Virus record (IMG/VR): IMGVR_UViG_3300044708_000098
Location: 1-27,307 of that record
DNA: 27,307 nt
Source of the DNA: a virus
Lineage: Duplodnaviria > Caudoviricetes
Reading direction: 5' to 3' (one strand)
Within the stretch, counting starts at the first letter, position 1; every line of letters starts with the position of its first letter. The notes below the pieces were generated by a model that worked only from the letters and a program-made list of their open reading frames with translations, did no database searches and was not told where the DNA came from. Positions 1-23,214 of this stretch are shown piece after piece. The translations under genes were made by a program, and so were the position numbers.

Positions 1-183
1 AATGGGCGCGGCTTCGGTGAGGGCAAAGTTCCAGTTCGCGCGGTTGTTGAAGTGCTGGAGTCCGGCAAACAGCGAACGTCCGGCGCGGGTCGTCATCTCC
101 GCATCGCCGGACGCGCCGACCGTGTCTGCGATCTCTTGGCAGGCGGCGCTAACCGCTTTCGTCGAGGGCTGGAACAGGCTCAT
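1..183 (-). CDS. Putative head-tail adaptor / tail tubular protein A-like (3' truncated by window edge)
   Basis: Not in the ORF track. ATG at 183 with GGAG upstream; MSLFQPSTKAVSAACQEIADTVGASGDAEMTTRAGRSLFAGLQHFNNRANWNFAL... The helical N-terminus and W-N-F-A motif resemble podovirus adaptors, and it lies downstream of the capsid. Confidence 0.55.
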   Translation of the reverse strand, partial: MSLFQPSTKAVSAACQEIADTVGASGDAEMTTRAGRSLFAGLQHFNNRANWNFALTEAAPI

Positions 184-1513
184 CCGTGACTCCGTTCTCC
201 GATTCCTGCTCGGCGCGGTCAGCGGCTTCGATCTCGGCCCATTCGGGCTCGCCGACGTGCGGCTGCTCGATGGTCCGCTCCTCGCGCAAGCGCTCCCATG
301 ACTCGATGATGCTCGGCACCACCTTCATCGCGTCCCGGTTCTCCGACACCCAATCCTTCGCGTTCGCTGCCAACTGCTTCCTGAACGTCACGTCCTCGAT
401 GAGCCGGGACAGCTTCTCCTCGAACTCGTCGGGGTTGTTGAACAGCAGGGCGGTCTCGCCGTCCACGATCTCGGCACGGTAGGCGGCGGTGTTCTGCGCC
501 AGCGTCGCAGCGGGCTTGTGGAGCACCGAGGACTCGTAGAACTTGATCGCGCTCCGGCAGCAGTTGAACACGTTGTCCGACAGCGGTGCGAGCGAGATGT
601 CGTGCCCGATCATGCACAGGCGCAGCTTGTACTCCTGGTACGGGCACCAGTCCTGGAACGTGTAGCGGTGCGGCGGGATCAACTCGTTGACCCACGGGAA
701 CTGTGCCCCCCAGATGACCCAATGAACCTGCGGGTACTTCTGGGTGATACGCCCCAACTGCTCGCGCAGTGGATACCAGTCCTCGTAGTGGGCAATACCC
801 CCCTGCCAGAGAATCTTGACCTGGTCGGGGTTCTCAGCGAGATGGACCTGCGGGTAGTGGTCGAAACGCACGAGGTTCGGGAACACCCGCGTTCTGCGGG
901 GCGTGACCTCCTTGCGAACGGCTGCTTCGACTTCCGGCGTGGAACACTGGACCTGGTCCGCCATCTCCAAGAGCGTGCGGTAGCTGGCGATGGACTGGCG
1001 GTTCTTGGCGAGGTTGATCGGCCGTGCGGTGTCGCGACGCTCGGGGCGGCTGCCGTTCATCAACGAGGTGTCGTACCACAGCACCTTGCGTTCGCCGTCT
1101 TGGACCACGCCGATCTCATGCCCGAGCGGAATCGTGGTGCCGTTCATGTCCCGCACACCGAGACTTTTGAATGCCTGGTTCAGCGGGGAGACGTTGAACA
1201 GGTTGTCGTCCGTCTCGATCACGAAGCTCGGTGCCCACTTCCAGTCTCCGTCCCGCTTCGAAGGCAGGAAGCCCTGCACGCCGCGCACGTTGTTGATCGC
1301 GGTGTCCCCGAGCGGTTGGTAGAGCAGGATGATGTCCGACTCGCAGAACTGCGACACGCGCTCTTCGGCACTGGTGCCGGCGTCGTGGCGGTCGATCACG
1401 GATTGGATCGGCAGCCCGAGTGTCGCGGCTGTCTCCAGTACCACCTCGGCACGGTAGTACTGCGAGGCCGTGTGAGAATAGGGCACGAGGGTGTACACCT
1501 TGAGTGGCTTCAC
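149..1513 (-). CDS. Glycosyltransferase, GT-B fold (GT4-like)
   Basis: Motifs YYRA, IETDDNLF, CSTPE, FPNLV, ILWQGG..H..DW, DISLAPLSDNVFN..RSAIKFYE, IVDGETALL and a C-terminal helix typical of phage GT4-like enzymes. GTG start overlaps the upstream stop. Confidence 0.88.
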   Translation of the reverse strand: MKPLKVYTLVPYSHTASQYYRAEVVLETAATLGLPIQSVIDRHDAGTSAEERVSQFCESDIILLYQPLGDTAINNVRGVQGFLPSKRDGDWKWAPSFVIETDDNLFNVSPLNQAFKSLGVRDMNGTTIPLGHEIGVVQDGERKVLWYDTSLMNGSRPERRDTARPINLAKNRQSIASYRTLLEMADQVQCSTPEVEAAVRKEVTPRRTRVFPNLVRFDHYPQVHLAENPDQVKILWQGGIAHYEDWYPLREQLGRITQKYPQVHWVIWGAQFPWVNELIPPHRYTFQDWCPYQEYKLRLCMIGHDISLAPLSDNVFNCCRSAIKFYESSVLHKPAATLAQNTAAYRAEIVDGETALLFNNPDEFEEKLSRLIEDVTFRKQLAANAKDWVSENRDAMKVVPSIIESWERLREERTIEQPHVGEPEWAEIEAADRAEQESENGVTDEPVPALDESG

Positions 1514-2839: not shown

Positions 2840-2851
2840 GATTACCGCGTA

Positions 2852-3808
2852 CTAACCGTTGGTGACGCCCGTCATGGCTGCCCAAGAACTTGGGTGCGCC
2901 AGTTCCAGCGTGCACTCCATGAGCACGATGCCGCGCGTGTGATCGCCGCCCTTACCCATCGCCTTGTGCTGAGGCGGCCGGAAGAACGCGATCTTCGCCA
3001 TACTGCGGTCGCCGATGTAGTAGGCACCGGAGGCCGAGTTCGTGCTGATCGGGATGAACCGATCCGTGATGACCGCGTACAACTGGTTGAACGGCGTCTC
3101 GAACACGTCGATATTCGCCACGAGACGCTGGTCGGTCGCCGCGATGTTGCGCACGTTGCCCGAGCCAGACGAGACGGTGGCGTTCACGAACTGCCGCTTC
3201 GAAGCCGGTGCGAACCAGATCGAGTCAGGCTCCGCGCCGTTCTCGAACAACGTCTGCGACAGCGTGACAATGTCCGCCGTTGTGACGCCGCCCGAGGCCG
3301 AGCTCGAAGTCGTGATGCCGAAACCACGGAACCCTGCCATGAGCGGAGCCGTACCGGCCTCGGCGCCCGTTGCGGAACCCGTGGACGAGATCGCCCACAG
3401 ACGAGCCTCGCAGTTGCGGGCGATGACCTTGAACTCCTTCATCACCTGGTGCTCGTACATGTCCGCGATGCCCGCCGGGTTCGACGCCCGCTCGCGGTCC
3501 GACACGCCAACGTGACGCGAGAAAATCTGCGTACCGTTCACGAGCCGGGTGGGTCCGGTCAGCGTGTCACCGCCGAAGTCAGCGGCTTCGATGACACCTG
3601 CCGTGGCCGTCGCTGCGAGCGTGTCGATGGTCCATGAGTGGACCACGTCCGTGGCGCGCTTCTTCGGCGAGGAACTGAACATCGGCGTCTGGAACGAGTC
3701 GAGGATGGTCACAACATCGGCCAAATCCTCGTGGTGAACTCCAGTCCCGGAGGGCCAGAAGCCCGCATCGAAAGTGGAGAACACACCTGAAAGCACACTA
3801 CCTGGCAT
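2852..3808 (-). CDS. Major capsid protein, DUF5309 / SU10-type
   Basis: Signature EDLADVVTILDSFQTPMFS...ATDVVHSWTIDTL, NGTQIF, FETPF and KGGDHTRG..LMECTLE; follows the scaffold gene. Confidence 0.92.
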   Translation of the reverse strand: MPGSVLSGVFSTFDAGFWPSGTGVHHEDLADVVTILDSFQTPMFSSSPKKRATDVVHSWTIDTLAATATAGVIEAADFGGDTLTGPTRLVNGTQIFSRHVGVSDRERASNPAGIADMYEHQVMKEFKVIARNCEARLWAISSTGSATGAEAGTAPLMAGFRGFGITTSSSASGGVTTADIVTLSQTLFENGAEPDSIWFAPASKRQFVNATVSSGSGNVRNIAATDQRLVANIDVFETPFNQLYAVITDRFIPISTNSASGAYYIGDRSMAKIAFFRPPQHKAMGKGGDHTRGIVLMECTLELAHPSSWAAMTGVTNG

Positions 3809-3833
3809 TTCCGTATGCCTCCTGGATCAGTCC

Positions 3834-4565
3834 CTAAAGCTCTTGCCCCATCGCTCGGAACTGGTCCTTGAGTAGAGGTCCGAGCCGTGCCTTGGCATAG
3901 GCCGCTGCGTCCCGACTGGAGCCGGTCTTGTTGAAGCGTTCGAACGCTTCCTGGACCTGCGCGTCAGCAGTCGGAGCCCTGCGGCCATCGCCAGCACGGC
4001 TACCGGGAATCTGTGCGTCCGCCACTCCATTGCGAGTCTCGCCCTCAGGCGGGCCTCCGGAACGACGACGCGAGTCGCTGAACCGCAGAAGCGCATATTC
4101 CATCGCCGCGTACGGATCGGCCGCGTACAGCGCGGGATACCGCTGCGAGAGGTCGGGGTCCGTATTGATGAACTGCGCCACATCGGTCTCAAACTGAACG
4201 TATCCCGGATGCTTCGCCACGATCTGCCCCCGCGCTTCGATGCCGCGAGAAAGCGGCTGAAACGCCTTCTGGATGCTCTGCTGGACAACCTCTTCGAGAG
4301 CATCGACCGGGATACCGAAGTCGGTGAGCCGGTCCTGCGCGCTGGTAGCTCGACGGTCTGGCACGTTTTGGCGACCGTTCGGGACGCCTCCGTTCTGGAC
4401 CACCTGAGCCAGCACAGACTCGTACTTCCCGACCTGCTCGCGGAGGCGCTTCGCCTCCTCACCACTGGATCGGTAGCCCTGTACCAGGGCCTCCACCGAA
4501 GGGTATCCGGCGAGATCGGGATTGAGTGGAGCCTGCTGCGTTTGGGTTGGATCGTTGTCGGGCAT
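3834..4565 (-). CDS. Putative capsid scaffolding protein
   Basis: Helical, low-complexity protein with YPSVEALVQGY motif, directly upstream of the capsid gene. Confidence 0.72.
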   Translation of the reverse strand: MPDNDPTQTQQAPLNPDLAGYPSVEALVQGYRSSGEEAKRLREQVGKYESVLAQVVQNGGVPNGRQNVPDRRATSAQDRLTDFGIPVDALEEVVQQSIQKAFQPLSRGIEARGQIVAKHPGYVQFETDVAQFINTDPDLSQRYPALYAADPYAAMEYALLRFSDSRRRSGGPPEGETRNGVADAQIPGSRAGDGRRAPTADAQVQEAFERFNKTGSSRDAAAYAKARLGPLLKDQFRAMGQEL

Positions 4566-6876: not shown

Positions 6877-7737
6877 CTACGTCGTTGCGGGCTCGGCGTC
6901 TACAGACTTCTGAACCAGCCACTTGTCTCGGAACGTCGGCCAGGACTTGCGAAGCTCGATTTCCGTGTCGTTGATGCTGTTTGGAGAAAGGTTGTTCCAA
7001 ATCACCTTGGGGGCGTCGTTGGCGATCTTGTCGTGGACCCGGATCGATGGGACTTTCAAGAGGCCAGCGAGCACGACGGGTGCCGATCCGCACGCAATCA
7101 TGGCGCGCGAGGCCGCGATGTAGCCCGCCAGCTTGGCAAAGTCCCCGGCGTCGTCGTAGGCGTGCCAGTTGGGATAGGTCCGCAGCCCCACCTCGCGGTC
7201 CCGCTCAACCCCCACGAACACGATCTCGTCGAACATGCGCTCTAACTCGCCCCGGATGCCGGCGAGGAACTTCCAGAAGGTCGGGCTGTTCTTGGTGTGC
7301 GCGTAGCACGCCTGCCCGTGGAGCACGAGCCGGTTGTACTTGGCGGGCACCGGCACCACGAGGCTCGGCTCGTTGGCGAGGTCTTCCACGCTGACCTTGA
7401 CCGGGACCTTCGAGACTTGCAGGCACTCCAGCGTGAGTTGCCGCGCGGGGAAGGCTCTCAGACCCAGGTGGTAGACCTTGTGCCCTTCGAACGCTGAGGT
7501 CGGGAGGTTCATGTGGAAGGGCTGGCCACCGCAGTTGTAGTTCTCGACCCCGCCCAAGAGCTTCACGGACTCGACGCACGGCTGCGACTCGAACAACGGG
7601 ACCAGCGGCTTGCAGGTCTTCTCGTCGAGCCACATCTCGCACTTCTGTCCCGACTGCTTTGCCCAATGATAGGCAATGGGCCATTGCATAAGAGCATCGC
7701 CGAGCTTTCCTGGGCAAGTCATCACCACTGTGCTCAT
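6877..7737 (-). CDS. Glycosyltransferase family 9 (heptosyltransferase-like)
   Basis: N-terminal PGKLGDALM (GT9 xGD motif). C-terminal LAGYIAASRAMIACGSAPVVLAGLLKVPSI resembles the GT9 'DSGPMHLA' region. Confidence 0.75.
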   Translation of the reverse strand: MSTVVMTCPGKLGDALMQWPIAYHWAKQSGQKCEMWLDEKTCKPLVPLFESQPCVESVKLLGGVENYNCGGQPFHMNLPTSAFEGHKVYHLGLRAFPARQLTLECLQVSKVPVKVSVEDLANEPSLVVPVPAKYNRLVLHGQACYAHTKNSPTFWKFLAGIRGELERMFDEIVFVGVERDREVGLRTYPNWHAYDDAGDFAKLAGYIAASRAMIACGSAPVVLAGLLKVPSIRVHDKIANDAPKVIWNNLSPNSINDTEIELRKSWPTFRDKWLVQKSVDAEPATT

Positions 7738-8312
7738 TGGTCACCCCTAAGAAGATATCGGTTGTCATCCGATCCACTCCCGACTTGGCGATATCCGAGC
7801 TTAAAGAAAGATTCCAGCCGTCCGTCCGTGTCCTTCTCGATAACGACCGCCTTCGGATTCCACCGCGCGATATCGAATCCCTCGATGATCTGTCGTTCTA
7901 TTCCGTCTACGTCCAGAGATAGCACATCCAGCCGGGGGAATCCGACGATCTCAAGGCACTGGTCCAACGTCAGAACTGTAGTTGGAAACAAATCTGGGTC
8001 TTGCGAATCTTCAAAACTGGTCCAGGTGTCCCTAAAAACCTTAGGATGTTCGCGCATGTACCGACGCGCGCTAGGCTGACTGTCACAGGCACAGGTCAGA
8101 ACCAGTTTACGGTTCTTCCTTAGAGCCTCCTGATGGCGCGGGTTGGGCTCGATGCACAAACAGGTCCACCCACGGTCTTCCAGAAGCTTTGTGTTGGAGA
8201 TGTAGACGCCATCCAGGGCACCCAGCTCGCAGGCATACCCATGGAAATCTTCGGGGAACTGCCCGAGCAACCAAGAGTCCTCGTCGCCCCCGGCATAGTT
8301 AAGCTTTGTCAC
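7734..8312 (-). CDS. FkbM-family SAM-dependent methyltransferase
   Basis: ELGALDGVYISNT, GWTCLCIEPNP, LDVLSLDVDGIE, PKAVVIE. Start moved to GTG 8312 (GGAG upstream). Confidence 0.85.
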   Translation of the reverse strand: MTKLNYAGGDEDSWLLGQFPEDFHGYACELGALDGVYISNTKLLEDRGWTCLCIEPNPRHQEALRKNRKLVLTCACDSQPSARRYMREHPKVFRDTWTSFEDSQDPDLFPTTVLTLDQCLEIVGFPRLDVLSLDVDGIERQIIEGFDIARWNPKAVVIEKDTDGRLESFFKLGYRQVGSGSDDNRYLLRGDQ

Positions 8313-8976
8313 TTGGGAGTCTCCACTGTCGAGGGACCGTTTCCCTGCAAATGTACGCATCGTTATCCGCTGACCGCCAGACTCGTTCATACCCAAACTC
8401 CTTCAGTTGCTCGTCCAACGCCCCTGCGTCCCAAGACTCCACGAGGATGACGCGTGGCTGCCAGCGCGCGATGTCGAACCCGCGCAGCACGTCCGGCTCC
8501 GTCCCCTCCGTGTCGATGCACAGTGCGTCCAGACTCGGGAACTCGCACTCGGCGAGTAGTTGGTCCAGCGTTCGCACATTGACCTTGGTTGTCGCCCACC
8601 GCTCTCCCGCCTCGGCTGCCAGCTTCGGGTGCTGGCTCGGCTTGAGCGAGGAGTATGCTTCAAGGTTGTCGAGGTTGATGTGGAAGTCCGCGCCGTCCGA
8701 GGGTGACTCCGCGACCGCGCACATCTTCACGAACGCCCGGCACTCGTTCAGCAGGTGCTTGTAGTAGGGGTTCGCCTCGACGGAGAGCACGGTCCAACGG
8801 TGCTGCTTCTCCAGTAGATAGGTGGAGTTGATGGACATGCCGTCGCTGGCACCCACGTCAATGCAGTAGCCGACGTACCCCGGCGGGAACTGGTCCGCGA
8901 TCCAGGTGGAAACCGTCCCGTTGGGAGGGTAGAACATGTGCTTGCCGGCAGCCGGCGGTCCGAGCGTGTCTTTCAT
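8299..8976 (-). CDS. FkbM-family SAM-dependent methyltransferase
   Basis: IDVGASDGMSINST, WTVLSVEANP, TLDQLL, LCIDTEGTE, PRVILVE. Confidence 0.9.
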   Translation of the reverse strand: MKDTLGPPAAGKHMFYPPNGTVSTWIADQFPPGYVGYCIDVGASDGMSINSTYLLEKQHRWTVLSVEANPYYKHLLNECRAFVKMCAVAESPSDGADFHINLDNLEAYSSLKPSQHPKLAAEAGERWATTKVNVRTLDQLLAECEFPSLDALCIDTEGTEPDVLRGFDIARWQPRVILVESWDAGALDEQLKEFGYERVWRSADNDAYICRETVPRQWRLPSDKA

Positions 8977-9647
8977 GTCACTACCTCAGGCTTCATGGCG
9001 TCCCGTAACGCCTCGACGTGGACCGGCATCTTGAGCGCGACGTACTCGAAGAACTTTTTGGCGTCATCGTCCCGCGAGGCGAGGTTCGTATGCGGCAACC
9101 CCTCGTGGTGGATCGCGAACGACTGCTCCGGAGCGTGGACAATCGCCGTCATCTCGCCGATCAACCCGGTCAGGATCGGCCAGCAGTAGTGGTAGAACTC
9201 CGGGCAGGCATACCAGCCCACACAGTCGATCCACTCCCACGACACGAACGGCATGTCCACATGCTCGCCGAGGTTGTGGCGCGGAGAGACTACCGCCAGC
9301 CGACGCGGGAAGAAATCCAGTGTCTCCAGGAGCCAGGCGTCCCAACCCCACGTCTCCGTCTTAATCGTCGTGTCATCGGTGATGAGTCCGTAGGCCGCAT
9401 AAGACGGGTTCTCGTCCACGAGCGAGTTCGCCGCCGCCACGGGTCCAATACGGGCCGCGTAGAGCGCCTTCACGCGCGGTCCGAATCCTGCTCCGGTGAG
9501 CCCGGACTCGTACAGTTCGCGCTGGTCCTCATCGACATATACGAGCACGTCGGCGAGGTTCGAGGTCGCGAGCACGGAGCGGCACGCCTTTAGCAACTTC
9601 TCCGGGCGGTCCCGGCTCGGAATCAGGACGGCGATGCGGTTCATCAT
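8973..9647 (-). CDS. Glycosyltransferase family 2 (GT-A fold)
   Basis: IAVLIPSRDRPEKL..AC.SVL, VLVYVDED, xDD metal motif (LITDD), MPFVS..W...VGW. Start moved to ATG 9647. Confidence 0.8.
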   Translation of the reverse strand: MMNRIAVLIPSRDRPEKLLKACRSVLATSNLADVLVYVDEDQRELYESGLTGAGFGPRVKALYAARIGPVAAANSLVDENPSYAAYGLITDDTTIKTETWGWDAWLLETLDFFPRRLAVVSPRHNLGEHVDMPFVSWEWIDCVGWYACPEFYHYCWPILTGLIGEMTAIVHAPEQSFAIHHEGLPHTNLASRDDDAKKFFEYVALKMPVHVEALRDAMKPEVVT

Positions 9648-9703
9648 CGCACCCTGCCCGCTACTGTCGCCGTCCAGCGATACCCGTTCGCTTGTATCGT
9701 CAT
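9644..9703 (-). CDS. Possible 19-aa mini-ORF MTIQANGYRWTATVAGRVR
   Basis: Its ATG overlaps the upstream stop (TGATG) and its TGA overlaps the GT2 start (ATGA). Confidence 0.35.
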   Translation of the reverse strand: MTIQANGYRWTATVAGRVR

Positions 9704-10974
9704 CACAACACCTGCTCGATGTTCGGGAGCGGAATGATGAAGGTCGTTCCCTCGTCGAGCAGTTTCCGCTCGCGTTCGACGAACTCCTTGCGGAAGGCCC
9801 AGGGTAGAATGAACACATTGCGCGGGTGCTCGTCGCGCATGTCCTGTTCGTTCGTCACCGGGAGCCAGGTCCCCGTCATGTAGGTCCCGAACTTGACCGG
9901 GTTGCGGTCCGCGATGGCCTTGAACGTGCCCGGCATGTCGAGGTACTGGAGCAGGACGCAACCCTTGGTACTCGCGCCGTAGCACCAGAGAGCCCCGCCC
10001 AACGTCAGCGGACCCTCCAACTGCTCGCGCATCCGGTCGCGCCATTTCTGCACCCGACCCGCAAAGTTGTGGGCATCGAGGTCCGAGACCGTGCGGTGCT
10101 CAGAAATGAGCGACCCGTGCGGGTTCTCCCACGTCCGCTTCACCGCCGTGACCCGGATGCTGCCGCCGTTCACGTCGTTGTAGGTGATGCCGATGATCGA
10201 GAGCCCGTTCCGCTCGTAGAGCGCGTTCAGCGAGCGCACATCGTAGTAGCACAGGTGCTCATGGCAGATCGCGTCGAACGCGTTAGCGCGCACCATCGTC
10301 GGCGAGTCGTTCAACTGGTTGATCCAGACGCCGCCCGGCGATAGTACCCGAGCGATGTCGCGCACGAAGGCGTCGGGCTCGTCCAGATCATAGAACATGG
10401 CGATGCTGGTGACGACATCACACCCGCCCTGCTTGCCGGGTCCGTACAGGCAGTCATGGTCGGCCGAGAAGTAATCCGCGATGACGTGGTCCGAGACCTT
10501 GTGCAAGTCCTCGGTGAAGTTGAGCGCGGGCTCGCAGGCGATCCGCGTGAAGCCGGGGGGCAGCGAAGCGAGCAGGAAGCCATCGTTCGCGCCGATGTCC
10601 AGCCAACGCCCGCCCGCATGATGGTTCAAGCCGGTCTGGATCACGTCCTTCAAGGCGTTCCGCATGGTCTCGTTGACGCTGGAGCGATACCAGAACTCCC
10701 GGTAGAGCAGGTCGGGATTGACCGTGTGGTCCAACTGGAGCAGCCCACAACCCTCGCAGCGCACCAGGTTCAGCGGACTCCGGGGCAGGTTCAGGTCCGG
10801 AGCGGGCACGAAGTTGACGAGGTACTGCTCGCCGAGCGAAAGCACCGGCGTCAGCGTGCGCTCGTGGCAGGAGCGGCAGGTGGTCCGCAGCTTCGAGACC
10901 GGGCTCGTGGAGACATCCGTGAGAGTCATCGTTCCGTCCTTGTTGGCGGTGGCCTTGAGCTTGGTCCGGTTCAT
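9703..10974 (-). CDS. NDP-hexose C-methyltransferase (TylCIII/EryBIII/TcaB9-like)
   Basis: Zn site CRSC...LVRCEGCGLLQL, SAM motif LDIGANDG, CHEHLCYY, C-terminal YGASTKG..LLQY, DRNPVKFG and ILPWAF. Start ATG 10974 overlaps the terminase stop. Confidence 0.92.
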   Translation of the reverse strand: MNRTKLKATANKDGTMTLTDVSTSPVSKLRTTCRSCHERTLTPVLSLGEQYLVNFVPAPDLNLPRSPLNLVRCEGCGLLQLDHTVNPDLLYREFWYRSSVNETMRNALKDVIQTGLNHHAGGRWLDIGANDGFLLASLPPGFTRIACEPALNFTEDLHKVSDHVIADYFSADHDCLYGPGKQGGCDVVTSIAMFYDLDEPDAFVRDIARVLSPGGVWINQLNDSPTMVRANAFDAICHEHLCYYDVRSLNALYERNGLSIIGITYNDVNGGSIRVTAVKRTWENPHGSLISEHRTVSDLDAHNFAGRVQKWRDRMREQLEGPLTLGGALWCYGASTKGCVLLQYLDMPGTFKAIADRNPVKFGTYMTGTWLPVTNEQDMRDEHPRNVFILPWAFRKEFVERERKLLDEGTTFIIPLPNIEQVL

Positions 10975-12707
10975 CGGATCGGCTCCCTCGGCACCAGTTC
11001 TCTCCAACTGCGATCTTCGTCGTCCTCGAACTGCCGCATGTCCATCCCCTCCATCGCAATCGGCTGTGCTCCGCGATCCCAAGGTGAACTGTTCGGTCCC
11101 ACCCGCCGCATTGGGACGTACATAGGCGCGCTGAACGCATCAGCATGGGCGTCGGCCCAGTCGATCTTGGTGCGTGGGTTCACGGCGTACTGGCCGATGC
11201 GTGCCATTTGCTCGGTCAGGCGGTCCATACCGGGAGCACCCTTCACCCAGCGAACATGGCCGTCCACCCAGAACGTCGTCGCGGCGTGCAAGCGCTCGTA
11301 CTTCTTCGTGTTGCCACGCTCGTACTCGATGAACGTGGGCATAGGCTCGTTCACGTCCGCGAACATGTTGCGGAGGTTCATCTCCCATGAGCCCTTCTTG
11401 CCCGCGCGCGTCTTCTCGTCGGTGATGGCGATGATCTTGAATCCCTTGCGGCGGTAGCGCTGGACCGTTACCACGATCAACTTGCCAAAATCCTCGGCCC
11501 GCATCGTGGCATCGCCGTAGCCCTCGATGACGTAGACATCACCGGAGCCGTTGCGGGGATAGCCGTGAACGAGGAGCACGGTCTCGTCTTTGCCCGCGAT
11601 TCTGCTTCCGTCTGAGAAAGCGGTGTCGCACTGGAGGGAGAAACGCAGCGCGGACCACGGGACCTCCTTGGGAGAGATGCCGCATTGCTCGATCTGCTCG
11701 CGCGTGATCGGGTTCAGTTCGGAAATGCTCGGGTCGTTCATCACCTGGGCAGCGTAGCGCAGGGCATCCGTACGCTGGTAGCGCTTCATGCGGTCGTGGC
11801 TCCAGACCAGCGGCGTCGTCGGCTTGCCCTCGGGGCACTCCTCGGAAACCTGAGCCGGGTCCCGGCCGGAGAGGAAGTAGACGTGGATGTTGCCAGTCGG
11901 GTCCACCGGGATGCTGCCGGTCTTCATGCCGCTCAGCGAGCACACGCCCTGAGTCCGGAATGCCTCCCCGAAGTGGTCCCCGTCGTCGTACCTCGTCCCG
12001 ACCCATACCACGAGCCCGTCCCCCTGAATGACCGGGACCAACGAAGACACCTGCGAGTTGACCGTCGCGAGCCAGTTGGTGTCCGTGGTCAGGCGTTCAT
12101 AGCTGATTGGGTCGTCGTAGAAGATGGCGTCGGGGTGAGAGCCGGTGATGGAAGTCTCCACGCCGAAGGTGACGAACGACGGGTCTTGGCGGGAAGTATT
12201 GCGGCGGCCGGAATGCACGATCTCGCGACCCGTCCACCTGCGAGCGTTGGCGCTCCAGTCGCCGTACAGCAGGGTCCACATGGCGTGCGAGTCGGAACCA
12301 TCGAGCACCGCCTTCATGGCTTCGAGCATCTTCGAGGCGAGTTCGACCTTCTCGGAGCCGGTGGCCGTCGCGATCTCGGGGTCCAGCAGGTGAAGCCAGA
12401 GTTGCCCCGCGCGCGTGATGAGCGTGGTCTTGCCGATTTCGCGGTGAACGATGACAGCTAGGTGCTTCTGGCGGGCGATACCCAGTCGGCGCCACTCGAT
12501 CCACTCCCGGATGTGCTTCTCGTACCAGTCCGCGAGCGGCTTGTGTACGTCAGGGTCGATCCAGCGCCGGCCCTTCGGGTTCGATCCCGCGCCGAACGCG
12601 ATGAGGAAGAAGGTCCAGAAGTTCACGCGGCAGAAATGCCGGAGCAAGTCCATCTCGGCGGCGCCGTCCCACGAGAACTCCCGGCTGGCGGGCTTGGCTC
12701 TAGGCAT
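10971..12707 (-). CDS. terL: Terminase large subunit
   Basis: Walker A VHREIGKTT, Walker B GSHPDAIFYDDP, coupling motif VGTRY, RNase H-like nuclease CDTAFS...KDET and DWADA. Start moved to ATG 12707. Confidence 0.92.
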   Translation of the reverse strand: MPRAKPASREFSWDGAAEMDLLRHFCRVNFWTFFLIAFGAGSNPKGRRWIDPDVHKPLADWYEKHIREWIEWRRLGIARQKHLAVIVHREIGKTTLITRAGQLWLHLLDPEIATATGSEKVELASKMLEAMKAVLDGSDSHAMWTLLYGDWSANARRWTGREIVHSGRRNTSRQDPSFVTFGVETSITGSHPDAIFYDDPISYERLTTDTNWLATVNSQVSSLVPVIQGDGLVVWVGTRYDDGDHFGEAFRTQGVCSLSGMKTGSIPVDPTGNIHVYFLSGRDPAQVSEECPEGKPTTPLVWSHDRMKRYQRTDALRYAAQVMNDPSISELNPITREQIEQCGISPKEVPWSALRFSLQCDTAFSDGSRIAGKDETVLLVHGYPRNGSGDVYVIEGYGDATMRAEDFGKLIVVTVQRYRRKGFKIIAITDEKTRAGKKGSWEMNLRNMFADVNEPMPTFIEYERGNTKKYERLHAATTFWVDGHVRWVKGAPGMDRLTEQMARIGQYAVNPRTKIDWADAHADAFSAPMYVPMRRVGPNSSPWDRGAQPIAMEGMDMRQFEDDEDRSWRELVPREPIR

Positions 12708-13242
12708 CGGGCTTCTGCTCCGGGGCGGCTGCGATGGGAGACAATGCTTCGAGCCGGGCCTGCTCACGGTCGCGCAGCATTTCTAGCGCCTTCTTCTGGC
12801 ACCAGATGGCTTGGACCTCCAGCCCCTCTTTCCTCGGGAATCCCTTCGGGTATCCGCCGCGCTTGATGTGCGGGAACTGTTTGTAGAGCGCTTTCAGGGT
12901 CTTCGGGAGGTCCGACTTGGTGAACGGATCGAGGTCGCTTATTTCGATCTTCGGGAACTCGGCTCCCAGCGGTTTCTGAGTCTTGGGGAACGCCTTGCGA
13001 TAGGCGATCTGGGTATTGGCGACTCCTGCGGGGTGCATCATGCGAGCCAGCCGGTCCTGAACTTCTGCGGCGGTGAGCGGTTCCGGGAGAACGGCGGTCT
13101 CGGAGTTCTGAGCCGCGATGAACTTCAATGCACGGAACTTATCAGCCCCGTCGCCGTAACGGGCGATTTCGCTGATGTGCTCCATCACCTCGTTGAATGA
13201 GAGGGTAGCGGGCTTGGGCTTATCGGGCTTCTCGTAGCTCAT
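12700..13242 (-). CDS. Hypothetical protein, candidate terminase small subunit
   Basis: 180-aa basic, helical protein directly upstream of terL; ATG 13242 overlaps the upstream stop. Function inferred from position only. Confidence 0.5.
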   Translation of the reverse strand: MSYEKPDKPKPATLSFNEVMEHISEIARYGDGADKFRALKFIAAQNSETAVLPEPLTAAEVQDRLARMMHPAGVANTQIAYRKAFPKTQKPLGAEFPKIEISDLDPFTKSDLPKTLKALYKQFPHIKRGGYPKGFPRKEGLEVQAIWCQKKALEMLRDREQARLEALSPIAAAPEQKPDA

Positions 13243-14054
13243 CCGGTACCGTCCAGCGTTTGCGAATAGGGAGCGCAGTAGATGTTTGCCACGCTGATCG
13301 AATAGTGAGAGACGGTGGTGTCGGCCCCGTTGCTCATCTGGACCTGCGGGGCGCACATGGTCGTGGTTGTTGGGCCGCCGCCCTGGGCGTTCCACTTCAC
13401 GCGATTGACTCGCTTGTTGGTGGCGTCGAACTGGCTCAGTCGGAAGTTCGTGTTGATGACACTGATCCCGAACGGGAATGCCCACATCTCCCACAAGAGC
13501 GTAACGCCAGCGGCGAGAATACCGGGGTTCAGTGCATGCGTCGTCACCGAAAGCGTCTTATCCACGGCTCCGGTTCCCTTGATGACGAGGTTCATCACGT
13601 CCTGCCCGTCGGTCGAGTCGTGCCACAGACCAATGGTGTTGTTCGGGATCGTGTCCGAGATGCACACGGGGTTCGTGCTGGCGGTCATGCCCGCGAACAG
13701 CCTGCCGCTATCACTGTTCCAAGTCTCGATGCGGAAGATCGTGGACATGTACCAACCACCGAGACTCGCGGCGTTGCCGAACCAGAACTGGTAATCGCCG
13801 GCATGAGACTGGCGCGGGCCGAGTTCCTGGTTCGCCGTGCCCGCAGCGTTGGTGTAGATCGTGCGCTTGAACTGGGTGTCGAACGCCGTGCCCACCGTGG
13901 CGTGCGTCACAGCGATACCCACGGCGGCGGTATCCGTCGTCCATGCCGAACCGAGCCCCGCTCCGCTCCCGGTGCCATCCACGCTATTCGGAAGGAACAG
14001 ACATCCGTTGAAGAACTGGAGCCCGCGCTGATAGAACGAGGTCGGGCGGGTCAT
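13239..14054 (-). CDS. Beta-sandwich (lectin-like) virion fibre/receptor-binding-like protein
   Basis: T/G/A/S-rich with alternating beta strands and many aromatics; ATG 14054 overlaps the upstream stop. Confidence 0.55.
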   Translation of the reverse strand: MTRPTSFYQRGLQFFNGCLFLPNSVDGTGSGAGLGSAWTTDTAAVGIAVTHATVGTAFDTQFKRTIYTNAAGTANQELGPRQSHAGDYQFWFGNAASLGGWYMSTIFRIETWNSDSGRLFAGMTASTNPVCISDTIPNNTIGLWHDSTDGQDVMNLVIKGTGAVDKTLSVTTHALNPGILAAGVTLLWEMWAFPFGISVINTNFRLSQFDATNKRVNRVKWNAQGGGPTTTTMCAPQVQMSNGADTTVSHYSISVANIYCAPYSQTLDGTG

Positions 14055-14992
14055 GTCACGCCCCACATCGAGCCACGATTGTTGATGACTCTGCCAGCCC
14101 CGTCAGCGTTCGTCACGTTGCCGTAGGCCTGACACTGGACACAGGTATCCGTGAAGATGCCGATGGCACCGGCATCAAACCCCGAGGTCCGGTTGTAGCG
14201 AACCAGCCCGGCCTCGACACCACTCATCGTGAAGAACTTCGCCGACGATGCACTGCCCGTGACCACGAAGTTGCAATACTCGATGATGGCTGGATTGCTG
14301 GTCCGGATGTCCACAACGCTCGTGATGGCTTGGCTCGTCTCGAAGTCGATGCCCTCGAACCGCACCAGCGTGTTGCTGTCCACCAACACATCGCCCAAGA
14401 TGTTGTTCTCAATGTTTCCGCCAACGAAGTGGTGCAACATCATCGCCGCCACACCGTCGCCACCCTGCTCCAGGTGGACCCCATAGGTGCCGTTGCCGTT
14501 GAACGTGCAGTCGCGGAAGCTATTGACGTTGGTCGAGAACGCTCCGACGGTGGTGTTGACGTAGAGCCCGGCCCCGGTATTGAACTGAGTCGTGCAATGG
14601 TCAAATACCGTCAGAATGGCCCCATCGAGCCAGATGCCGACCGTTGGACCGTCTCCCGATACGGCGGAGGTCGCGCCCACGACCACGTTGCGAAACTCGT
14701 TGCGCGGCGTTCCTGCGCCCGAGGTGAACAACTTGAGACCGAATGCCTTGCCAGTCGCACGGATCGTCAGGTTGTTCATCTTGACGGCACCTGTCTGAAT
14801 CGCGACCGAGCCCGTCAGGACCGTCGCGTCTACGCCGGACCCACGCAGTTCGAGGTTCGATTGAGTCCAGGTGATGTCGCCCGCGAATGTACCGGGGCCA
14901 AGTTGAACGATACCACCACCTGTCAGGCTCGCAATCGCCGAGTTCACCGCTCCTGAAGCGGCCTTCGAGACTTCGATGATGTTGGCACCCAC
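14051..14992 (-). CDS. Right-handed beta-helix (pectin lyase-like) tailspike-type protein
   Basis: AIASLTGGGIVQLGPGTF...LELRGSG..ATVL cap, followed by repeated N..GI/V rungs (FNTGAGLYV, NGNGTYGVHL, ENNILGDV). Confidence 0.8.
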   Translation of the reverse strand: MGANIIEVSKAASGAVNSAIASLTGGGIVQLGPGTFAGDITWTQSNLELRGSGVDATVLTGSVAIQTGAVKMNNLTIRATGKAFGLKLFTSGAGTPRNEFRNVVVGATSAVSGDGPTVGIWLDGAILTVFDHCTTQFNTGAGLYVNTTVGAFSTNVNSFRDCTFNGNGTYGVHLEQGGDGVAAMMLHHFVGGNIENNILGDVLVDSNTLVRFEGIDFETSQAITSVVDIRTSNPAIIEYCNFVVTGSASSAKFFTMSGVEAGLVRYNRTSGFDAGAIGIFTDTCVQCQAYGNVTNADGAGRVINNRGSMWGVT

Positions 14993-15612
14993 TACGGCAG
15001 CCTCGTGATGAGGCAGAGAGACCCCTGCCGGACCGTGACCGTGCCGCCGCTCGATTCGTTCCCGGCCTGCAACTGCACGGACCCCACCGCCGAGGGGACA
15101 ATCACGCCCTCAATCGTGATCGGGTAATCCGTGTTCGCGACCGGGAAGTTGACCGTCGTCACGGCGTCCCCGCTGGACAGGATCGTGTCCTCCCAAGTTG
15201 TCACGGCTCCGTCGCCGCCAAGGCAAGCTTTCGCGACGCAATCGAACCGCGTCGAGGTCGGGAAGGTGAGCGTGAACTTGGCACCTTCGTTGATGACGCT
15301 GTTCCGGACCAGGAGGAAGAACCGGAAGTGAACATAAAGACCGCCGACGAGCGGGAAGGCGAGGCCCGTGACGTTCACGACGGAGGAGGACGTAAACGTT
15401 TGGTCGGCGGTCAAGTTGACCGAGTTGATGGACGGACTCACGGGCGGGTACGCATCGCCGCGCAGTACCGTGAGGTCGCGGAAGCTCTTGAGTTCGGCGC
15501 GCGGAGTGCGTTCCCAGCACACGTCACACTCGTAGATCGGCGGCGGCGGCTGGACCATCGCGGGCATGACCGAGTTCTCGCAGGCTGGGCAGTAGAGCGT
15601 CGTGCGGGCCAC
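14992..15612 (-). CDS. Zn-ribbon + C1q/TNF-like jelly-roll fibre-tip-like protein
   Basis: N-terminal CPAC...CDVC. The C-terminus LTADQT...VTGLAFPL...IEGVIV...GSVQLQ...TVRQGS resembles phage fibre tip domains. Confidence 0.6.
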   Translation of the reverse strand: MARTTLYCPACENSVMPAMVQPPPPIYECDVCWERTPRAELKSFRDLTVLRGDAYPPVSPSINSVNLTADQTFTSSSVVNVTGLAFPLVGGLYVHFRFFLLVRNSVINEGAKFTLTFPTSTRFDCVAKACLGGDGAVTTWEDTILSSGDAVTTVNFPVANTDYPITIEGVIVPSAVGSVQLQAGNESSGGTVTVRQGSLCLITRLP

Positions 15613-15628
15613 ACTCAGCGGTCCTCTC

Positions 15629-16480
15629 TCATGCGGGCTTGAACGTCGCGAGCGCGATCACCCAGTCGATCTCTCCACTGGGGATCGTACCGCCTGCGCG
15701 CGTAGCAGCGGCGGAGAGGAGTTGCGCCCGGCCTTCGTACAGACTGACATCGCCGCCCGGAATCGAAGCACAGTGCACGGCAAGAGCACCACCGAACGGG
15801 GTCGTCCATGACGGCGCTCCAGCCGAGAGGTCTTCGAACACGGCGAGCGCGGCAGCCGCGTATTCGTTGATACTGGTGAGTGCGGTCGTCAGCCCGCTGT
15901 TGAACGATGGCCCGGTACCTGATGCGGTCTTGGTCTTGTCGAGCACAGAGACCGTCGCCGAGCGCGTCAGCCTGGATACGGACATGACGGCGGCAGCGGG
16001 CAGGGTCCCGCCCCAGGTCGCAACCATCGTGTCTCCGGCTCCTGCGGTGCCGATGTCGGCTGCGTTGGAGTACCAGATGCTCACCCAAATAGCTCCGGCG
16101 GAGTTCGCCGATGCCGCCTTGGTGAGCGTGTTGGCTCCGGCTCCAGACTTGACGCTGGTCGGGTCGGCACTGTTCAGAGAACTGGCGACGCTGACGACGT
16201 AGATGTCTCCAACGCGTGAGGTGAAGGTGCCGGATGTCAGGGTCGTGGTGAGTTGCGTCGCGTCGATCATCGACCCTGTCGCCAGATTGGTTGCCCCAGC
16301 ACCGCCATAGATCGGTCCGGTACCCGCGACGACGAGACTTTCGTAACGCTGCTGCTTCAGGTTCTTGCGCAGAGTGGTCTCGTGACAGGTCTCACAGGTG
16401 AACATCTCCGGCGGAGGTTGCATGAGGGACGGCCTCGCTGGAGTCTCGCAGTTCGGGCATAGCAGTTCGAGGCGTCCCAT
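15629..16480 (-). CDS. Zn-ribbon + A/T/G/S-rich beta domain protein
   Basis: N-terminal CPNC...CETC. The C-terminus GDIYVVSVAS...VSIWYS...TMVATW resembles virion surface domains. Confidence 0.6.
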   Translation of the reverse strand: MGRLELLCPNCETPARPSLMQPPPEMFTCETCHETTLRKNLKQQRYESLVVAGTGPIYGGAGATNLATGSMIDATQLTTTLTSGTFTSRVGDIYVVSVASSLNSADPTSVKSGAGANTLTKAASANSAGAIWVSIWYSNAADIGTAGAGDTMVATWGGTLPAAAVMSVSRLTRSATVSVLDKTKTASGTGPSFNSGLTTALTSINEYAAAALAVFEDLSAGAPSWTTPFGGALAVHCASIPGGDVSLYEGRAQLLSAAATRAGGTIPSGEIDWVIALATFKPA

Positions 16481-16481
16481 G

Positions 16482-17414
16482 TCAGAACGAGTTCACCATC
16501 GCGGGGAGCGGCTGATAGATGGCGTTGTCGTAGAACCCCGCTTCACTGCGAGCACCCGAGGTACCTTGCGTGACGAAGTATCCTGCCGCAAACCCGTCGT
16601 TGTTACCCGCAAGCAGGACATTGTCCAGCCGAGTTCCGCTGTAGGTGTGGGCGAGTTGACCATTCAGGTAGGCCTTGAGCGTTGAACCTCCGCCGACTAC
16701 CGGGGTGTAATCCATGCGCAGTTCAACGAGATGGTAGTCCACTTGGAATGACGGCTGGAGCGTGCATTCGACGACATCCGGCGGGGTTCCGGTATCCGTA
16801 TCCCACACCAGCACTTCCCATTTCTGGCTGGTGGAATTGAAACGCAATTGGATCACCGATCCGGTGCTTGCCGAGGCATAGTTGGTCTGCCACGGTGGGT
16901 TTTGGCTGAAGGACCCCCACTGGATTCCCTGCAACGATTCACCGGCCTGGGTACCAACGTTGTTACCCTGATTTTGGAGCATCTTGTAGCTGAACGGCAG
17001 CGCCCAGACGTTGAATGGGTCCACGAGCAGTTTCTCGCAAATCTCGAAAATCTTATTGGTTCCGGCGGGGAGATCGACATAACGGACGATCCCAAGCGCC
17101 TTGTCGATGTAGCTTGCCGAGCGAAATCCCGGAATCGTGGACCCGGCGGGGACTTGCAGATCATACCGAAACTTGCGGTGATAGAACGCGGTATCGTAGA
17201 GGCGCGCGTCGATCAGGGCGTTTACTTCGGCGATGTTCAAGTCCGCGACTCCGCCGCCACCCATCCAAATCGCGAGTTGGGGGTTGCACTTGAGTTCTTC
17301 GCGCAGGCACCACTCGCCGCAATCGGGGCAGGGGTAGGTGAGCTCGCGCAACTGTGCGATCGGGTTCGGGACCGGGGCGTCACAGTGGGGGCAGGCGAGT
17401 TGGAGACCGGACAC
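16482..17414 (-). CDS. Zn-ribbon + ConA-like lectin domain protein
   Basis: N-terminal CPHC...CPDC. The C-terminus YHLVELRMDY...LKAYLNGQLAHTY is a ConA/LamG-like pattern. Confidence 0.6.
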   Translation of the reverse strand: MSGLQLACPHCDAPVPNPIAQLRELTYPCPDCGEWCLREELKCNPQLAIWMGGGGVADLNIAEVNALIDARLYDTAFYHRKFRYDLQVPAGSTIPGFRSASYIDKALGIVRYVDLPAGTNKIFEICEKLLVDPFNVWALPFSYKMLQNQGNNVGTQAGESLQGIQWGSFSQNPPWQTNYASASTGSVIQLRFNSTSQKWEVLVWDTDTGTPPDVVECTLQPSFQVDYHLVELRMDYTPVVGGGSTLKAYLNGQLAHTYSGTRLDNVLLAGNNDGFAAGYFVTQGTSGARSEAGFYDNAIYQPLPAMVNSF

Positions 17415-17418
17415 ACGA

Positions 17419-17598
17419 TCACGCCCGTCTACGGGTGGGTTTCTTGTGTCGATCAGCGGAGCCGGTTTCCTGCTCGTTGCGCCGCTCGCCGAGCAGGATG
17501 GCGACCATCTGCTTGGGGTCCGTAACGATGGGGCCGTGCTTGGAGCCGCTGTGGAGCTTGCCGGCCTTGAACTTCTTGGAGACCAAGGCGCTTGGCAT
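17419..17598 (-). CDS. DUF6496-like small basic protein (59 aa)
   Basis: Not in the ORF track. MPSALVSKKFKAGKLHSGSKHGPIVTDPKQMVAILLGERR matches the FK.GKLHSGS..GP.V...KQA.AI signature. Confidence 0.75.
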   Translation of the reverse strand: MPSALVSKKFKAGKLHSGSKHGPIVTDPKQMVAILLGERRNEQETGSADRHKKPTRRRA

Positions 17599-17814: not shown

Positions 17815-18444
17815 TCAAGCGTGTTCTTGGTGAGCGGCGAACGCGGCGAGCTGGCGTGCTTTCTCGGCGGCCATCTCGTCGTCGCTCATGGTCAGGAGCG
17901 GCCGGTACTGCCACAACTCGTCGGGGTCTTTCGGGGCGGGTGGCATGTGCAGCAGGTCCGTCAGCAGTTCAGCGACGTTGAGTTTTTCGGGGAGCGGGTA
18001 GTCCTTGTCGCCGATGCGCAAGTAGGTCCCGTATTCGGGCTCGCCGTGAATCTTGGCAGCGAGCGAGACGCGTTCGCGCCACGGCTGTTCGTCGTCGAAC
18101 GTGAGCGGGACTCCGGCGCCCCGGTACTTGAGCGTGCTCATAGCGGAGCCGGTGGTCCAGGCGAGGCGCCACTGCCAGTAGCGGTCGAGCGTGGACCACT
18201 GGGCGAGCTCGGTAAGGCCGAACATGTGGCGGACGAAATCGGGTTCGTGAGCGATCTCCAGGACCATTTCGCAGGGACGCAGATTGCGTTGCTGGAGGGT
18301 GCGGACGAGGCGCCAGACGGCACGGGTGCAGGCGGAATCAACCGGACTTGCGGACTTGTAGCTGCTTCCGTCCTCGCGGAACCCGTAGAACTCCGGCAGC
18401 TTGGGCTCGGCGTTGCGCTTCTTCTCGGACGTTTTCCAGCCCAC
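17815..18444 (-). CDS. Hypothetical protein
   Basis: GTG 18444 preceded by GGAGG (alternative ATG 18471); protein-like composition; no family recognised. Confidence 0.7.
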   Translation of the reverse strand: MGWKTSEKKRNAEPKLPEFYGFREDGSSYKSASPVDSACTRAVWRLVRTLQQRNLRPCEMVLEIAHEPDFVRHMFGLTELAQWSTLDRYWQWRLAWTTGSAMSTLKYRGAGVPLTFDDEQPWRERVSLAAKIHGEPEYGTYLRIGDKDYPLPEKLNVAELLTDLLHMPPAPKDPDELWQYRPLLTMSDDEMAAEKARQLAAFAAHQEHA

Positions 18445-18601
18445 GGGGACCTCCTGTTTCGGGTTTTTCATCGAGCCACGGGCAGCGGGGAAAACCGGCG
18501 CCGACCCAAGTGCTGGCAGCGGGGGTGGACATCCAGACCGAGCCGTCGGAGAGCAGGACGTAGGCGCGGCCCTGATCGACGGCGAAGGCAACTAGTTTCA
18601 T
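18338..18601 (-). CDS. Hypothetical protein (MKLVAFAVDQGRAYVLLSDGSVW...)
   Basis: ATG overlaps the rep stop (ATGA), but it overlaps the downstream gene by about 100 nt. Confidence 0.5.
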   Translation of the reverse strand: MKLVAFAVDQGRAYVLLSDGSVWMSTPAASTWVGAGFPRCPWLDEKPETGGPRGLENVREEAQRRAQAAGVLRVPRGRKQLQVRKSG

Positions 18602-19526: not shown

Positions 19527-19555
19527 AATCTATGCCCGCTCCCTGCATTTGTCAA
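19527..19555 (-). promoter_or_regulatory. Sigma70-type promoter for the rep operon
   Basis: TTGACA-N17-TAGATT on the minus strand. Confidence 0.75.
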
Positions 19556-19986: not shown

Positions 19987-20016
19987 TTGACACGGCCACC
20001 AGTGCGGCCATATGAT
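19987..20016 (+). promoter_or_regulatory. Sigma70-type early promoter
   Basis: TTGACA-N18-TATGAT; the palindrome AATAGCTATT (19979-19988) overlaps the -35. Confidence 0.75.
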
Positions 20017-22169: not shown

Positions 22170-22519
22170 GCCGCTTCCGTGGTCGCCCAGCCAATCGGGT
22201 GTCGTCACCATATCGCGCCTCGCTCTTGCAGCGTTGGCTAAGGAGAATCAAACATGATGGCGAACACTGGCTGTGGACTGGCGCTACCACCGACACCGGG
22301 TACGGGACAATCGGTGCTGGCGGGGTTGGTGGGGCCACTCTCAAGGCGCATCGGGTTGCGTGGTTTTTCAGTACTGGTGAATGGCCAGCCGACGGACTGG
22401 TGGTACGCCATCTATGCGGAAACCGACTGTGCGTTCGCCCCGGACACCTGTCCATCGGCACTCAGTCCGATAACCGGAGAGACGCGGTAGCCGCCCGCGC
22501 CCAGGAGGGGACCAAGTGA
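22166..22519 (+). CDS. HNH (His-Me finger) endonuclease
   Basis: WLWTGA...GYG, AHRVAW, VRHLCGNRLCVRPGHL..GTQSDN. Start ATG 22166. Confidence 0.88.
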   Translation: MSRFRGRPANRVSSPYRASLLQRWLRRIKHDGEHWLWTGATTDTGYGTIGAGGVGGATLKAHRVAWFFSTGEWPADGLVVRHLCGNRLCVRPGHLSIGTQSDNRRDAVAARAQEGTK

Positions 22520-23214
22520 GCGCCATTGAGCAGGCCGCACCCAGCATCACCGTCTGGCATTTCGCTGCCGACAAACTCCGCGATGGCCGTCCGCTCCCGA
22601 AGGCTGGCGACGCGTTGCACCATGAGGGCGAAGTCATCCCGTGCGAGTCCGGTTACCACGGCTCCCTGCGGGCGCTCGACGCTCTGCAATACGCGCCGGG
22701 GCCGTTCGTCGCGCGCCGTCACTTGTCGGGCGTCATCCTACCGCACCAAAACGACAAGCACGCCGCGTCCGACTGCACGATGCTGACCGACTACATTGAC
22801 GCGACGAACATGCTGCATCGGTTCGCTTGCTGGTGCGCTACGAAGGCACTGGACCGCGAGGACGCTGCGGGCCGACCCGTGGACCCACGAAGCCGCGCGG
22901 CCGTTGCAGCCAAGCTCGCATGGCTCGACGGCGAGATTGACGAGGCGACGCTGGCTGCCGCGTGGGATGCCGCGAGGGATGCCGCGAGGGCTGCCGCGAG
23001 GGATGCCGCGAGGGATGCCGCGAGGGATGCCGCGAGGGCTGCCGCGAGGGCTGCCGCGTGGGATGCCGCGTGGGCTGCCGCGTGGGATGCCGCGTGGGCT
23101 GCCGCGTGGGATGCCGCGAGGGATGCCGCGAGGGATGCCGCGTGGGATGATTTCAACACCGAATTGGAGCGACTTCTCACCGAACTGCTCGACGCCAGCG
23201 AGGTCCAACCATGA
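22516..23214 (+). CDS. Phage protein with (D/A)AA(R/W) repeats
   Basis: N-terminal [19 protein letters not shown] domain, FACWCA...[13 protein letters not shown] helical domain, then a tetrapeptide repeat. Confidence 0.8.
22954..23145 (+). repeat. 16 x 12-bp coding tandem repeat G(A/C)TGCCGCG(A/T)GG
   Basis: Counted directly; encodes [16 protein letters not shown]. Confidence 0.95.

Follow-up and report, generated by a model that had tools for sequence, protein, structure and literature searches.

The 27,307-nucleotide stretch analyzed here (the window; the whole of IMG/VR record IMGVR_UViG_3300044708_000098, estimated to be 64% complete) carries three tandem genes, termed A, B, and C, whose products begin with the same four-cysteine module and then continue into unrelated heads. 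The module is probably, though by no means certainly, a zinc-held anchor that would attach exchangeable accessory adsorption heads to the outside of the virion. The heads are predicted to bind or cut surface sugars. The genes and their modules are placed as follows.

16482–17414, minus strand: gene A, 310 residues; Cys4 module and head A (possibly ConA/LamG-like)
17250–17414, minus strand: module of gene A, codons 1–55, with cysteines at 8, 11, 29, and 32
15629–16480, minus strand: gene B, 283 residues; module, flexible linker at residues 46–59, and two predicted β-sandwich domains
16316–16480, minus strand: module of gene B, a predicted rubredoxin-like zinc ribbon with a β-strand at its end
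14992–15612, minus strand: gene C, 206 residues; module and a 150-residue head
15448–15612, minus strand: module of gene C

The modules of A, B, and C share the motif CPxC-x17-CxxC, and their first 48 residues can be aligned without gaps. Leu6, Cys8, Pro9, Cys11, Gln21, Cys29, Cys32, Glu34, Arg38, Leu41, and Lys42 are invariant; Met1 reflects only the start-codon convention and is not taken as conserved. When the four cysteines are held fixed, 7 of the 40 remaining positions are identical in all three modules, a number reached by none of 100,000 shuffles (mean 0.33 identical positions, maximum 5). An earlier note on this DNA had described three tandem genes with a shared, gapless Cys4 N-terminus, and that description is confirmed at the coordinates given above. 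Against a profile built from 63 modules, none of them from the lineage of the window, C scores 54.9, B 50.5, and A 30.2 bits; 78 other Cys4 segments from the fetched loci score 16.8 bits at most. The window contains exactly three matches. One of those 78 segments, in locus L030 (11.9 bits), is nevertheless counted as a module with a short spacer, and the profile thus fails to separate the shortest variants from background. Comparison of codons 1–50 of A, B, and C with two close relatives reveals 38 synonymous and 5 nonsynonymous codon differences, a synonymous excess that establishes the three genes as real. The module is under purifying selection, and the resemblance among its copies is far above chance.

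Beyond the module the three proteins diverge, as the earlier note had stated. Pairwise BLASTP of the A, B, and C heads detects no homology (best E values 0.56, 3.4, and 3.3), and profile–profile comparison of A with B, A with C, and B with C gives a probability of at most 0.2%. The folds that the note had assigned to the heads are less secure. Head A, described there as ConA-like, does match Laminin_G_3 of Pfam in the window protein, at E 0.018 and 15.6 bits, below the cut-off of 27.6; none of four head A homologues matches that family, and head A has no sequence match in the PDB. The assignment of a C1q/TNF-like fold to head C finds no support. Head C has no Pfam or PDB sequence match, its Atlas matches, at 0.85, are to viral proteins without names, and gene C has one distant homologue, 36% identical and with its module, in L057. 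It is instead the predicted domains of B that resemble TNF-type jelly rolls. The AlphaFold2 model of gene B (mean predicted local distance difference test score, pLDDT, 81.5) comprises the module, a low-confidence linker at residues 46–59, and two β-sandwich domains, for which the best VIA matches are the receptor-binding head of Tuc2009 (Z 6.2) and the TNF family; a Z of about 6 is too low to distinguish kinship from a shared arrangement. Searched against viral structures, the model returns 66 matches at E ≤ 0.001, and most of the named ones are minor tail proteins from phages of Mycobacterium and Gordonia. A Foldseek search of the B head against the PDB gave no match at the same threshold.

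Heads are exchanged behind the conserved module, and the earlier proposal of interchangeable heads is borne out. Two phages can have modules 79–88% identical and yet differ in what follows, head A in the one and head B in the other. Among three phages that are about 94% identical in DNA, the modules are 93–100% identical; the gene A of L009 has a module 93% identical and a head only 52% identical, and in L007 the neighboring genes D and E (described below) are 62% and 68% identical and the A, B, and C heads 99–100%. A contig of run X8, which may be the same strain as L009, has 735 nucleotides in place of 711 nucleotides of gene A. From phage to phage, modules that occupy the same gene position remain similar, and they group by position, not by head, as judged from pairwise identities and the terminal groups of a quick tree (58 columns) that is otherwise mostly unresolved. 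Among the paralogues of the window, identity to the module of B is only 29–36%. Such low identity between paralogues, together with positional similarity between phages, would fit a single type of docking site or several. Receptor-binding proteins usually pair a shared N-terminus with tips that vary (10.64898/2026.05.12.724579).

The module extends well beyond the window. Terminase searches for relatives returned 34, 54, and 50 loci, with much overlap, and these loci together with one protein search supplied 75 distinct module proteins, reduced to 73 by removal of one short open reading frame (ORF) and one truncated duplicate. The module is fused to at least six head types: among the 73 proteins, 34 heads are of type B, 11 of type G (GHL15-like), 11 of type D (β-helix), 6 of type A, 4 of type C, and 3 of type N, with 4 uncertain or single; many of the 73 are strain variants and do not represent independent events. 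The cysteine spacer varies from 6 to 23 residues, and a glycine lies 12–30 residues past the last cysteine in 72 of the 73. Module genes were counted in 18 whole records (18 of 23 loci, with two weak matches, E 0.002 and 0.009, left out), giving 4, 4, 3, 3, 3, 2, 2, 1, 1, 1, and 1 per record and seven zeros. Most of the counted sequences are themselves part of the counting profile, so that their recovery is a given; motif scans of the regions upstream support the zeros, although a very divergent module could escape them. All 25 counted genes sit in a block just before the terminase genes.

The G head is predicted from sequence to be a GHL15 glycosidase-like barrel. Five G heads were scanned with GHL15 (PF14885, cut-off 27 bits): two score above the cut-off (L015, 31.2 bits; L057, 27.8 bits), L010 falls just below it (26.6), and L012 and L018 give no match. 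Homologues of D in relatives match a β-helix family of Pfam above its cut-off. A three-sequence profile of the A, B, and C modules found only near-identical phages, a 21-row module alignment held no stretch conserved enough for a DNA scan, and a profile of full-length B retrieved only 2 proteins among 8000 scored candidates and is uninformative.

The module is predicted from its structural model to be a rubredoxin-like zinc ribbon that ends in a β-strand. Modeled alone (pLDDT 69), it adopts a β-hairpin ribbon fold that matches rubredoxin (Z 3.1) and YfgJ (Z 5.0, root-mean-square deviation 1.8 over 45 residues) and also, at low Z, RNA polymerase Rpb12/RpoP; the overall range is Z 2.6–5.0, and low values are expected for a domain of this size. 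The four cysteines are invariant in all 33 aligned modules; one module has CxC as its first pair. With the rubredoxin-like ribbons of Rpb12/RpoP, YfgJ, and DUF7836 it shares two CxxC knuckles and the predicted fold; unlike them, it is always the N-terminal part of a large β-rich or barrel protein. Analogies to an anchoring ribbon are offered by Rpb12/RpoP, which docks by means of its ribbon plus a terminal strand, and by PAAR proteins, zinc-stabilized plugs with variable cargo. All three window modules match Pfam DUF7836 (PF25206) weakly, with a best score of 21.9 bits against a cut-off of 26.7, and the modules of relatives score 15.2–18.5 bits. No Pfam family is matched above its cut-off, no PHROG family by more than 5 of 33 members, and no viral structure at E ≤ 0.001. 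The earlier note had not recognized the module as a described fiber anchor; consistent with this, no anchor family matches it in Pfam, PHROG, or structures, and no known domain with another role was found to match. The heads being unrelated as well, neither of these two findings that the note had named as refuting its proposal has come about, and the proposal is partly supported. In 74 proteins scanned with 19-residue windows starting in the first 60 residues (highest hydropathy 1.46), the module is followed by no membrane helix; a value of 1.8 is reached further on in 2 of the 74, inside head B.

The genomic setting is that of late virion genes. The minus strand carries the terminase large subunit, a glycosyl-/methyltransferase cassette, an SU10-type portal, and the capsid protein. 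Head to tail, the genes of the block run A, B, C, D, and E, followed by the probable small terminase, and the surrounding features are these.

17419–17598, minus strand: small basic ORF with a weak match to DUF6496, bounding the block on its upstream side and found in module-less genomes too
14051–14992, minus strand: gene D, a β-helix protein, here without a module; Pfam Beta_helix E 5.9e-5, below cut-off
13239–14048, minus strand: gene E, the module-less neighbor of D
12700–13236, minus strand: probable terminase small subunit, assigned by position with no library match; downstream edge of the block
10971–12707, minus strand: terminase large subunit (phrog_38, E 7e-43), the query for collecting relatives

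The module block thus lies on the same strand as, and directly upstream of, the terminase, portal, and SU10-type capsid genes, and this position was counted in favor of an anchor. In a relative with a terminase 99% identical to that of the window (G003), the late genes continue with an SU10-type adaptor, an 860-residue protein, a fiber-like gene, a DNA-ejection protein, and an M15 peptidase; the 860-residue protein is called nozzle, and the fiber-like gene tail fiber, by position only, neither having a library match. The set of adaptor, nozzle, fiber, and ejection protein indicates a podovirus-like phage. At least half of the stretch is contained in two runs, which are metagenomes of soil and rhizosphere, and one of them may be its source; no RNA data set is among the runs listed as containing it. 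GTDB prophage searches with terminase or capsid queries found none, and cultured phages match the capsid protein only at 25–36%.

An ordinary fiber-like gene follows the nozzle in all 16 genomes in which this region was compared, and the module proteins are therefore extras. The length of the fiber block, defined as the region between the nozzle and the first ejection gene, runs opposite to the presence of the module: it is 2840–3928 nucleotides in all six module-less genomes and 888–2571 nucleotides in all ten module-bearing genomes (rho −0.81). The direction is the same in three sister comparisons on a quick tree (G017 with G016, G005 with G004, and G012 with its sister clade), and several module-less genomes have second fiber genes in the fiber block. 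These observations suggest that module genes and fiber genes do overlapping jobs. The heads show no homology to tail fiber, adaptor, or nozzle beyond two weak matches, that of the L104 head (1722–2417) to an insertion in the nozzle genes of G015, G008, and G010 (28.5%, E 6e-4) and that of head C to a fiber-block gene of G017 (E 0.0065). The possibility that this G017 gene encodes a B-type head is not supported (3.9%). In the module-less genomes G007, G012, and G013, the second fiber-like genes (in loci L143, L147, and L148, after the tail fiber) start with a motif that, by eye, recurs inside the main fiber, which suggests a chain-like or branched fiber.

A plausible course of events can be outlined for an anchor of this kind. 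The proteins would be made late, together with the virion genes; the module would fold around zinc in the cytoplasm and then dock on the particle. A Gly-rich flexible linker is predicted to follow the ribbon, and the heads it carries may aid adsorption to host or soil glycans beside the ordinary tail fiber. Recombination in the linker could swap specificity and leave the anchor untouched.

The capsid surface is the tentative choice for the anchor site. It is placed slightly ahead of the tail because the ordinary fiber probably occupies the adaptor sites, as it does in SU10 (PMC9509320), because a capsid has many equivalent positions that could accommodate zero to four paralogues, and because the closest solved capsid, PDB 9NY2 (E 5.9e-11 with the capsid protein of the window), was deposited with the study of Pa223, which has an N-terminally held spike. 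In Pa223, a podovirus of Pseudomonas, a 41-residue N-terminal domain alone holds a β-helix/TNF-knob spike on the capsid (10.1101/2025.06.11.659172). The likeness to its gp52, a protein of roughly 290 residues, is one of architecture only: a short N-terminal part (about 40 residues in gp52, about 46–55 in the module) precedes a β-rich head, the capsid proteins are related, and a separate ordinary tail fiber is present. Pa223 differs in having one described spike, where up to four paralogues with unrelated heads occur here, and the words zinc and cysteine are absent from the main text of that paper. gp52 was not among the general-search matches of the module or of head B, no direct pairwise comparison having been made. 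A more doubtful extension is that, in this soil podovirus clade, the zinc ribbon serves as a plug for sockets on the capsid surface, so that a single particle would show a mosaic of up to four different lectin, β-helix, and glycosidase heads, host recognition having shifted in part from secondary tail fibers to these appendages. The trade-off with fiber genes and the depolymerase-like heads point instead to the tail, where a site on nozzle or fiber is only slightly less likely than one on the capsid.

Several observations weigh against an anchor for adsorption heads. The module is absent from 7 of the 18 records, and is therefore dispensable. D lacks it in the lineage of the window, which has C, and E lacks it wherever E is seen. 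The resemblances of the module are confined to generic zinc ribbons of the cytoplasm: none of the best 60 of its 214 PDB sequence matches, and none of the 50 fold matches listed, is a virion protein. When the 16 genomes are compared, just one nozzle column, and not a single adaptor column, follows the presence of the module. The trade-off with fiber length partly follows the tree and could reflect a limit on genome size. The label minor tail protein, borne by several matches of the gene B model, is an annotation. No cultured relative was found; B, C, a G-type protein, and a short-spacer protein had no match. Finally, G003 encodes a GHL15-type homologue without a module on the opposite strand (L042:11111–12388, minus) and outside the late block, so that such heads can have other roles.

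It is possible, if improbable, that the module instead serves to oligomerize or link the paralogues with one another, in the form of a trimer cap or branched chain, and that only one member or another protein touches the virion. The grouping of modules by gene position recalls branched tailspike complexes, which have position-specific N-terminal domains (PMC11414711). Where C is present, in the lineage of the window and in L057, neighboring β-rich genes lack the module (two such genes follow C in L057); where C is absent, in L012, L013, L018, L021, and L034, D has it. From these two lineages one might guess that C acts as an adaptor for D and E. Four records with a single module gene argue against linking, and gene order and content vary among L057, L018, and the window in a way that requires no fixed chain.

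An equally improbable alternative holds that the proteins are not virion parts at all but are made late as soluble proteins that act on glycans, either within the cell or after release at lysis, and that the module is a tag for stability or targeting. Cytoplasmic proteins typically have Cys4 ribbons of this kind, the cassette of glycosyl- and methyltransferases lies nearby, and the module-less homologue in G003 would suit such a role. Most heads, however, are nonenzymatic β-sandwiches (those of type B foremost), the structural matches of the B head are phage proteins often named as tail components, and both head exchange and the fiber-block trade-off are easier to explain for adsorption parts. 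That the module binds nucleic acid or the packaging motor, bringing cargo into or onto the head during packaging, is very unlikely: the block abuts the terminase genes, and zinc ribbons of RNA polymerase and the ribosome are among the closest matches in sequence and fold, but the likeness is of a weak, generic kind (best Z 3.1), the spacer varies in length, and a cargo of 150–450 residues with glycan-directed folds is implausible inside the head.

Conserved N-terminal anchors with exchangeable tips are already well described (PMC13352976, PMC11414711, 10.64898/2026.05.12.724579, PMC7602432), and as in known tail anchors the N-terminus here is conserved and the C-terminal module exchanged. Both Klebsiella KP32, with its conserved peptide and branching domain (PMC13352976), and the XD/TD domains of Ackermannviridae (PMC11414711) share with the present family a short conserved N-terminal docking part, specificity modules that are exchanged at the C-terminus, and several such proteins per genome. 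They differ in that docking is by a 29-residue peptide or by T4 gp10-like domains, and, unlike the genes of branched receptor-binding systems, those described here precede the terminase, apart from the tail block. The modules have no Pfam or named PHROG match to the known tail anchors, the N-terminal domain of T7 gp17 and T4 gp10-like XD/TD; the KP32 peptide is set apart through these family searches, with no direct sequence comparison. Decoration proteins such as T4 Hoc, T5 pb10, and the phi29 head fiber are likewise surface proteins that the phage can do without, in which one part binds the capsid and other domains are directed at glycans (PMC7602432), but the five folds named in the abstract of that review include no zinc ribbon, and zinc is absent from its main text. 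The zinc sites of HFTV1 are His-based (PMC12494034), and the word zinc does not occur in the main texts on Peru-2 (PMC13320782) and SU10 (PMC9509320). No zinc-ribbon or CxxC virion anchor was found in Pfam, PHROGs, the PDB, or the full-text literature, a scope outside which most subscription papers and supplements fall.

A zinc ribbon in an anchor role therefore appears to be undescribed. Since the modular logic is well known, the surprise would lie in the part used, its copy number, and the trade-off with tail fibers. If the proposal is right, the module would constitute a new class of virion anchor, a compact metal-stabilized domain, some 50 residues long, able to bear anything between a 150-residue sandwich and a 450-residue barrel. 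Small podoviruses would then have a way to diversify adsorption with no need of a longer tail, the pre-terminase block, annotated as hypothetical, would stand out as a host-range hot spot, and the module might itself serve as a display tag.

Some features of the block and its surroundings deserve mention in their own right. D and E (13239–14992) are always neighbors and have been exchanged jointly in L007; in Flavobacterium phage 11b, a homologue of E lies among the structural genes. Many relatives (as in L026, L028, L031, and L038) have from one to several small ORFs rich in Lys/Arg ahead of the block, whether or not they carry a module. Between terminase and portal, the segment at 6877–11082 (minus strand) encodes glycosyltransferases, two FkbM methyltransferases, and a sugar C-methyltransferase, and a further glycosyltransferase (149–1513, minus strand) follows the capsid gene. 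The latter is present in all 16 genomes compared and the C-methyltransferase in 15 of them (partial coverage in both cases); together these genes are possibly a virion glycosylation cassette.

Two insertions that follow the capsid gene in G003 (L041:16242–16757 and 18087–18587) are absent from the window; by their motifs they look like HNH and LAGLIDADG homing endonucleases. Sigma-70-like sites at 19527–19555 (minus strand) and 19987–20016 (plus strand) flank the switch in gene direction, two sites against 1.4 expected and so not above chance. On the plus strand, 22516–23214 encodes an Ala/Trp/Asp/Arg tandem-repeat protein that matches three unnamed PHROGs and whose repeat tract differs in L006.

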